From the NCBI RefSeq assembly GCF_050920415.1, contig NZ_CP169309.1: a DNA stretch of 64,000 nucleotides; one strand, written 5' to 3'. A program made the translations under genes and the position numbers. Below the pieces are notes generated by a model, which saw only the letters and a program-made list of their open reading frames with translations, did no database searches and had not been told where the DNA came from. Numbering within the stretch: position 1 is the stretch's first letter; each line of letters begins with the position of its first letter. This DNA comes from Escherichia coli (GTDB lineage: Bacteria > Pseudomonadota > Gammaproteobacteria > Enterobacterales > Enterobacteriaceae). Positions 1-419 of the stretch are shown here, piece after piece.

Positions 1-419
1 GCGACTTCAGCCGTCGCCAACCACTGACCCAGCAACAAAAGGACGCCGCTCGTCAGCGTTATCAGTCGGCCTCTCCTGAGCAGCGCCAGGCAGTCCGCGA
101 GAGAATGCAGACTAACCCACAGAACCAGCAGCGAAGAGAGGCAGCGCGTGAGCGTATTCAGTCTGCCTCGCCTGAGCAGCGCCAGGTATTTAAGGAAAAA
201 GTACAGCAGCGCCCACAGAACCAACAGCAACGTGATAACGCCCGCCAGCGTGTTCAATCAGCATCACCTGAACAACGTCAGGTTTTTCGGGAGAAAGTTC
301 AGGAGAGCCGCCCACAACGTCTAAACGACAGTAACCATACTGCCAGGCTGAATAACGAGCAACGGTCAGCAGTACGCGAACGGCTGTCTGAGCGTGGAGC
401 AAGAAGACTGGAAAGGTAA
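1..419 (+). CDS. yacH: YacH-like repetitive protein, 3' portion (5' end outside window)
   Basis: Frame 3 is open from position 3 to TAA at 417-419; translation carries tandem repeats (..QSASPEQRQVF[K/R]EKVQ..); convergent with lpdA as in E. coli. Confidence 0.6.
   Translation, partial: DFSRRQPLTQQQKDAARQRYQSASPEQRQAVRERMQTNPQNQQRREAARERIQSASPEQRQVFKEKVQQRPQNQQQRDNARQRVQSASPEQRQVFREKVQESRPQRLNDSNHTARLNNEQRSAVRERLSERGARRLER

Follow-up and report, generated by a model that had tools for sequence, protein, structure and literature searches.

The terminal region of the uncharacterized Escherichia coli protein YacH, whose 3' coding end opens the 64,000-nucleotide window analyzed here (contig NZ_CP169309.1), is built around three head-to-tail repeat units that, judging from the pattern of substitutions between them, are old, diverged and under selection in the yacH frame. 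We consider it likely that the tail as a whole consists of ancient 32-residue modules under purifying selection, with their number being altered in frame by recombination or slippage, and that it would function as a length-adjustable polycationic extension in the periplasm. The coordinates of the individual elements are collected in Table 1.

Table 1. Elements of the yacH 3' end and the adjoining intergenic region, in window coordinates
Feature	Position	Strand	Remarks
yacH CDS, 3' end	1..419	+	codons from 3; last 138 codons and stop; translation, 100% match to yacH of NZ_CP169399.1
Pre-repeat segment DFSRRQPLTQQQK	3..41	+	exact L-T-x-x-Q string LTQQQ at nt 24-38; translation; conserved across Escherichia tails
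Repeat unit 1, type A, DAARQRYQSASPEQRQAVRERMQTNPQNQQRR	42..137	+	
Repeat unit 2, C-type tail, EAARERIQSASPEQRQVFKEKVQQRPQNQQQR	138..233	+	head as near to B as to C heads (4-unit alleles)
Repeat unit 3, type D, DNARQRVQSASPEQRQVFREKVQESRPQRLND	234..329	+	
Degenerate terminal piece SNHTARLNNEQRSAVRERLSERGARRLER	330..416	+	L-N-x-x-Q motif at nt 348-362; translation
yacH stop codon TAA	417..419	+	translation
Perfect 12-nt inverted repeat TAAAAAAGCGGC / GCCGCTTTTTTA	430..460	.	G+C hairpin between A-run and T-run

The initial annotation had recognized a truncated yacH 3' end at the beginning of the window, an assignment borne out by the translation, which is free of stops up to the terminal TAA, and by an exact match to the yacH gene of NZ_CP169399.1, whose sequence is identical to the window over 4480 nt. 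The full gene could be recovered from that genome, where it lies between acnB and the convergent lpdA and is an intact 584-aa ORF devoid of internal stops, annotated as a DUF3300 domain-containing protein. The 584-aa protein (P0014) is recorded from 89 contigs, and the first 480 nt of the window find a yacH match in 5416 of the 5426 complete E. coli genomes. The statement that the function of the gene is unknown still stands, with yacH being placed in the y-ome (PMC12133099). Immediately downstream of the gene, the hairpin at 430-460 has a predicted RNA fold of -19.9 kcal/mol (z = -3.0) and, from its position and architecture, is probably a bidirectional intrinsic terminator shared by the convergent yacH and lpdA genes. 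A simple terminator scan made no call at this hairpin, and a search of window positions 1-600 against Rfam recovered nothing above threshold, the sub-threshold matches all falling on the hairpin.

The three repeat units follow one another at intervals of exactly 32 aa (96 nt) and are bounded by ...RRQPLTQQQK on the N-terminal side and the degenerate SNHTARLNNEQRSAVRERLSERGARRLER on the C-terminal side. At a lag of 32 residues, the tail shows 46 identities with itself, while 5000 shuffles averaged 20.6 and never exceeded 31; at a lag of 96 nt, the identity is 55%, with codon shuffles reaching 41% at most. The earlier proposal of at least three tandem units is hence upheld beyond chance expectation, with its period of about 33 residues corrected to 32, and the enrichment it described in Q, R, and E is plainly evident (29 R, 28 Q, and 13 E in 139 aa). 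The further description of the copies as nearly identical in peptide and very similar in nucleotide sequence does not apply to this allele: pairwise, the units are only 53-66% identical in protein and 56-72% in DNA, no exact run at lag 96 is longer than 16 nt, and identity within a 96-nt window peaks at 73%. Tandem Repeats Finder reported no array in window positions 1-2000 even at a score of 30, and the repeat is accordingly demonstrated by the above lag statistics instead.

The divergence between the units is strongly structured. Comparison of unit 3 with units 1 and 2 over the nine codons of the core QSASPEQRQ reveals seven synonymous changes and no nonsynonymous ones. Across whole units, the same comparison gives a pS of 0.83-0.85, which is near saturation, and a pN of 0.26-0.32, with pS among all the window's units ranging from 0.46 to 0.85. 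The restriction of the core to synonymous changes against a near-saturated synonymous background indicates that the copies are old and that the peptide core has been under strong purifying selection in the yacH frame. The core is also almost unchanged, S/T swaps apart, in E. albertii and E. fergusonii; the pN/pS of the tail between strains is 0.08-0.24; and the last ~20 residues of the terminal piece are nearly invariant across the genus Escherichia. A 96-aa ORF runs antisense to the repeat region and the terminator (window 190-480, minus strand); given that selection clearly acts on the yacH frame, we regard it as a shadow ORF.

The initial annotation had also flagged the array as a hotspot of length variation between strains and proposed a comparison of repeat numbers, which confirms it. 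In a sample of 60 genomes, evenly spaced from 5425 matching complete E. coli genomes and classified by locus span with checks on representative loci, about 27 (~45%) carry 3-unit alleles, about 32 (~53%) carry 4-unit alleles and one is divergent; 5-unit alleles exist in E. coli but are rare. YacH proteins of Escherichia in the public collection are 584, 604-625, 634, 648, or 662 aa long, and 89 distinct tails with many small in-frame indels are seen among 191 proteins. Elsewhere in the genus, 3-unit arrays are found in E. albertii and in Escherichia sp. MOD1-EC7003 and SCPM-O-B-8794, and 4-unit arrays in E. whittamii and Escherichia sp. E1V33, while the units of E. fergusonii are 34 aa long and present in three or two copies (proteins of 618 and 584 aa). 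The copy-number differences between strains are ordinary repeat-length variation; no description of this polymorphism was found in the yacH literature cited here. Other in-frame length changes in or beside the array distinguish a further set of E. coli variants (P0006, P0094, P0276, and P0282). The 662-aa E. coli protein has a 46-aa duplication just upstream of unit 1, the 634-aa protein has an 18-aa duplication within unit C, and some variants show deletions of 10-11 aa that take out the helix following the core.

Read from its N-terminus, the complete YacH protein displays a hydrophobic segment, the DUF3300 domain, an acidic stretch rich in Asp and His, the conserved motif W-x-H-N-P-x-[HY]-R-x-G-V-P-Y (in the window-identical YacH, WRHNPNYRNGVPY), and lastly the tail. 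The DUF3300 profile (PF11737) matches aa 75-332 with 265.5 bits (cut-off 25; E = 4.5e-79), in the part of the gene lying upstream of the window; the window itself encodes only the tail, outside this profile. Near the N-terminus, aa 9-27 are hydrophobic (Kyte-Doolittle 2.0 over 19 residues) and predicted to be helical; bearing A-S-A at 23-25, this segment could constitute either a cleaved signal peptide or a membrane anchor. Distant DUF3300 homologs begin with Sec-type signal peptides or lipoboxes, indicating that the family is exported; by extension, YacH is a probable periplasmic protein. The window-encoded tail has a net charge of +16 and a pI of 11.7, and the remainder of YacH has a net charge of -15. 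In the AlphaFold2 model, the tail is helical with a pLDDT of 63-86 over most of the repeat units, a confidence that is only moderate; helices in low-complexity Q/R/E-rich sequence can also be over-called. The predicted helix breaks at 468-470, 501-502, and 532-534 correspond to the SAS before each P; the S-P-E-Q of the core, which coincides with these breaks, looks like a helix N-cap.

The Asp/His-rich stretch DDDDHDHHHDDDDYHHH (positions 3575-3628 of locus L001, within yacH and upstream of the window) is coded by a short-period DNA repeat of 12 and 21 nt. In Salmonella Typhimurium, an 8-bp frameshift deletion in yacH (GATGATCT/GATCATCA, Asp284) is reported in a comparable Asp/His-coding sequence (PMC3391293, PMC10048834), which may be equivalent to the DDDDHDHHHDDDDYHHH region.

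The tails of the wider DUF3300 family resemble that of YacH in being basic, low-complexity, and rich in R, Q, and A, often with lineage-specific repeats and an R-rich C-terminus; however, the 32-aa QSASPEQRQ unit is seen in Escherichia only. Just three of 150 diverse DUF3300 representatives possess at least two SPEQ-type motifs, all three being fragments with E. coli-type tail sequence, and the nearest homolog from outside Escherichia (P0121, 56% identity) has only irregular, shorter motifs. A genome-wide scan with the DNA pattern returned eight matches outside Escherichia, which we rejected as chance occurrences, located either in ORFs that are short or spurious or in low-complexity sequence with no relation to the unit.

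We propose that the tail would be placed in the periplasm, where it would act as a length-adjustable, polycationic helical extension contacting either anionic components of the envelope or the acidic segment of YacH itself, and that the number of units would set the reach or the valency of the tail. At the standard rise of 0.15 nm per residue, a 32-residue helix is ~4.8 nm long. A formal parallel is offered by domain II of TolA, likewise a long, charged, alanine-rich helical segment of short repeats, which spans the E. coli periplasm; TolA domain II differs in sequence, composition (K/A/E/D), and protein family, and the analogy is one of form only. In the literature, yacH is reported to be CpxR-regulated, with its transcription dropping on exposure to protamine and a strain deleted for yacH surviving protamine treatment better than its wild-type counterpart (PMC9600279); yacH is also down-regulated in a rob mutant (PMC7537768).

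The main rival to this proposal treats the tail as a low-complexity appendage that is neutral in function, with the repeats and their copy-number changes being tolerated noise without a phenotype. We take this to be improbable. In its favor, the tails of DUF3300 homologs cannot be aligned and differ among themselves in length and in the type of repeat, the profusion of distinct Escherichia tails with small indels noted above is in keeping with it, alleles of three and of four units occur side by side at comparable frequencies, and yacH is dispensable and has become a pseudogene through frameshift in several strains of Salmonella Typhimurium (PMC3391293, PMC10048834). The wholly different tails of distant homologs with their own repeats, the tolerated E. 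coli indels, and the Salmonella pseudogenes together fit a weak constraint on the exact sequence of the tail. Neutrality does not, however, sit well with a core free of amino-acid changes among the units despite near-saturated synonymous divergence and almost unaltered in E. albertii and E. fergusonii, with the low pN/pS of the tail, or with its nearly invariant terminus; the invariant core in particular argues against it.

A quite unlikely alternative is that the units are divergent members of a family of periplasmic helical motifs, namely LTXXQ (PF07813; CpxP and Spy, with the related comparison to ZraP, PF13801) or DUF3106 (PF11304), which would place YacH in the Cpx regulon as a multivalent protein resembling a chaperone or a stress sensor. 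The LTXXQ-type proteins are, like the proposed tail, periplasmic, helical, and rich in Q, R, and E, with an [L/A]-[T/S]-P-E-Q helix start leading into an amphipathic helix, and share with yacH a link to the Cpx regulon, yacH being CpxR-regulated as noted above. BLASTP aligns the tail with CpxP solely at the two LTXXQ motifs of the latter (E = 0.011 and 0.44), a local identity of 9/15 falls on the second of these motifs, and one unit attains z = 4.0 relative to shuffled CpxP. Further, the tail contains one exact LTQQQ and one LNNEQ flanking three ASPEQ, and DUF3106 is recovered at sub-threshold scores in all 15 Escherichia tails surveyed (best E = 4.9e-4).

Against this, the LTXXQ and Metal_resist profiles yielded no match at E <= 10 in the window, 5-unit, and E. 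fergusonii tails, and LTXXQ none at E <= 1 in 15 Escherichia tails, although the controls were readily detected (CpxP E = 8e-22, Spy 2e-23; CpxP, Spy, and ZraP match at about 1e-22 to 1e-23). Spy and ZraP were not significant in the shuffle test, and sequence and profile searches of the tail against the PDB found nothing meaningful. The YacH units also differ from LTXXQ proteins in having Ala in place of the conserved Leu and in being arrayed in tandem, where LTXXQ proteins have one hairpin domain. Pfam scans placed no curated family above threshold on the window tail. The best-scoring profiles for the tails are DUF3106 (window 11.8 bits and 5-unit allele 16.5 bits, cut-off 24.3) and RskA_N (PF22618), which matches 14 of the 15 tails (window 14.2 bits, cut-off 27); the E. 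fergusonii tail alone passes the latter, with 29.9 bits summed over three repeated partial matches. The window-tail alignments to these two profiles, at residues 72-100 and 98-126, appear to cover the conserved S-P-E-Q core and the helix that follows. As RskA_N is an anti-sigma domain of the cytoplasm, its homology with the YacH tail is unlikely. We regard the DUF3106 and RskA_N matches as a motif-level similarity at a common [S/T]-P-E-[Q/E] helix start, and the likeness to LTXXQ proteins too extends over only ~15 residues, at a helix-start motif that is common, between proteins of similar composition. The identification of the units as CpxP/Spy-type LTXXQ modules is unsupported at the profile level and is left as a low-probability lead.

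Returning to the array of old modules proposed above, comparison of alleles with different numbers of units suggests how that number changes. In the 4-unit alleles, the head of unit B is 0.90-0.96 identical to the head of C and its tail 0.92-0.96 identical to that of A; these identities show the extra unit to be a chimera of its neighbors. As a consequence of this C-head/A-tail structure, such alleles contain a 96-nt window that matches the stretch lying 96 nt downstream at 92-99% identity, the exact runs measuring 22-95 nt. The chimera is the product that would be expected from a single event of unequal crossover or slippage inside the conserved core, and we propose that copy number shifts in frame via unequal homologous recombination or replication slippage at this point, with the near-identical stretch of the 4-unit alleles potentially serving as the substrate for more gain or loss. 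In the window allele, the head of unit 2 shares 0.94-0.96 identity with B and 0.90-0.96 with C; for its tail, the values are 0.94-0.96 with C and 0.60 with B. This allele has the 3-unit architecture (A, C-type, D), having either never expanded or contracted again. Its interpretation as a B/C deletion hybrid is weakened by B itself being the C-head/A-tail chimera, a configuration that fits expansion from three to four units as well as contraction from four to three. Lacking a long near-identical repeat, the window allele should be comparatively stable.

The initial annotation had instead attributed the array to recent expansion or contraction, in effect an actively unstable array of near-identical DNA copies in this very allele, which is now very improbable. 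Other alleles do exhibit such features: adjacent units in them can be 86-94% identical, with the near-identical 96-nt stretch described above, and a 5-unit allele contains two identical B units. For the window allele, the measured identities already contradict it, as do the short longest exact run, the silence of Tandem Repeats Finder, and the pS values of its units; the near-identical stretch occurs in 4-unit alleles only. The yacH array is comparable to the VNTRs of bacterial envelope proteins, i.e., polymorphic in-frame coding repeats, since its units are arranged head-to-tail in a length that is a multiple of three and its copy number differs by strain (3, 4, or 5), consistent with unequal recombination between similar units. 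It departs from them in that the window's units are old and diverged, hence their invisibility to Tandem Repeats Finder, in that high DNA identity of adjacent copies is seen only in the 4-unit alleles, and in that the variation is limited to one or two units with no long array. Its identity with ms11, a 96-bp MLVA locus of E. coli/Shigella, was ruled out, the ms11 primers (PMC8215070) being absent at <=3 mismatches from both the 64-kb window and every yacH locus fetched. That the periodicity is a non-coding or wrong-frame artefact of an ORF broken upstream, a notion to which only the location of the 5' part of yacH beyond the window lends itself, can be dismissed, being contradicted by the intact 584-aa ORF of the identical genome, the recurrence of that protein on 89 contigs, the retention of frame by every length variant among full-length proteins, and the concentration of unit-to-unit differences at third codon positions.

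The yacH gene is also more diverse within E. coli than its neighbors, with a synonymous divergence of 0.10-0.36, compared to 0.06-0.12 in lpdA and acnB (locus L001, 2665-4419, versus L002-L007); weak codon bias may explain part of this excess. Only one of 5416 genomes has at least 99% identity to the window over positions 1-480, and the yacH locus falls below 90% identity in ~35 of 5425 complete genomes. In E. coli AST85 (NZ_AP043644.1; L006, 920-2779), yacH has ~75% DNA identity to other E. coli alleles, less than the E. albertii allele (82%), and its protein is 99% identical to E. fergusonii YacH; in the flanks, lpdA is 98.9% identical to that of K-12 and acnB is typical of E. coli. The AST85 gene, on this sequence comparison, looks like a replacement by an E. 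fergusonii allele.

These observations carry little weight outside annotation, to which they contribute the unit boundaries, the invariant core, and the allele architectures of the unannotated tail of a y-ome envelope protein. They do show that YacH proteins of 584, about 616, and 648 aa differ from strain to strain by entire units, and that errors of assembly are not the cause. The locus is a possible simple size marker, but one with two common states only. The natural allelic series of two to five units is usable to test the role of the tail, for example in the protamine phenotype of the yacH deletion. A more speculative reading, to which we assign a low likelihood, is that the QSASPEQRQ modules represent an undescribed periplasmic binding or helix-start module, with distant kinship to DUF3106/LTXXQ at the level of the motif, and that two to five such modules tune the reach or valency of the polycationic tail, thereby setting sensitivity to cationic antimicrobial peptides or feeding into Cpx signaling. 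Were this the case, the nearly even 3-/4-unit polymorphism, the high sequence diversity found at yacH, and the entry of an E. fergusonii allele into some strains would be signs of selection rather than drift.
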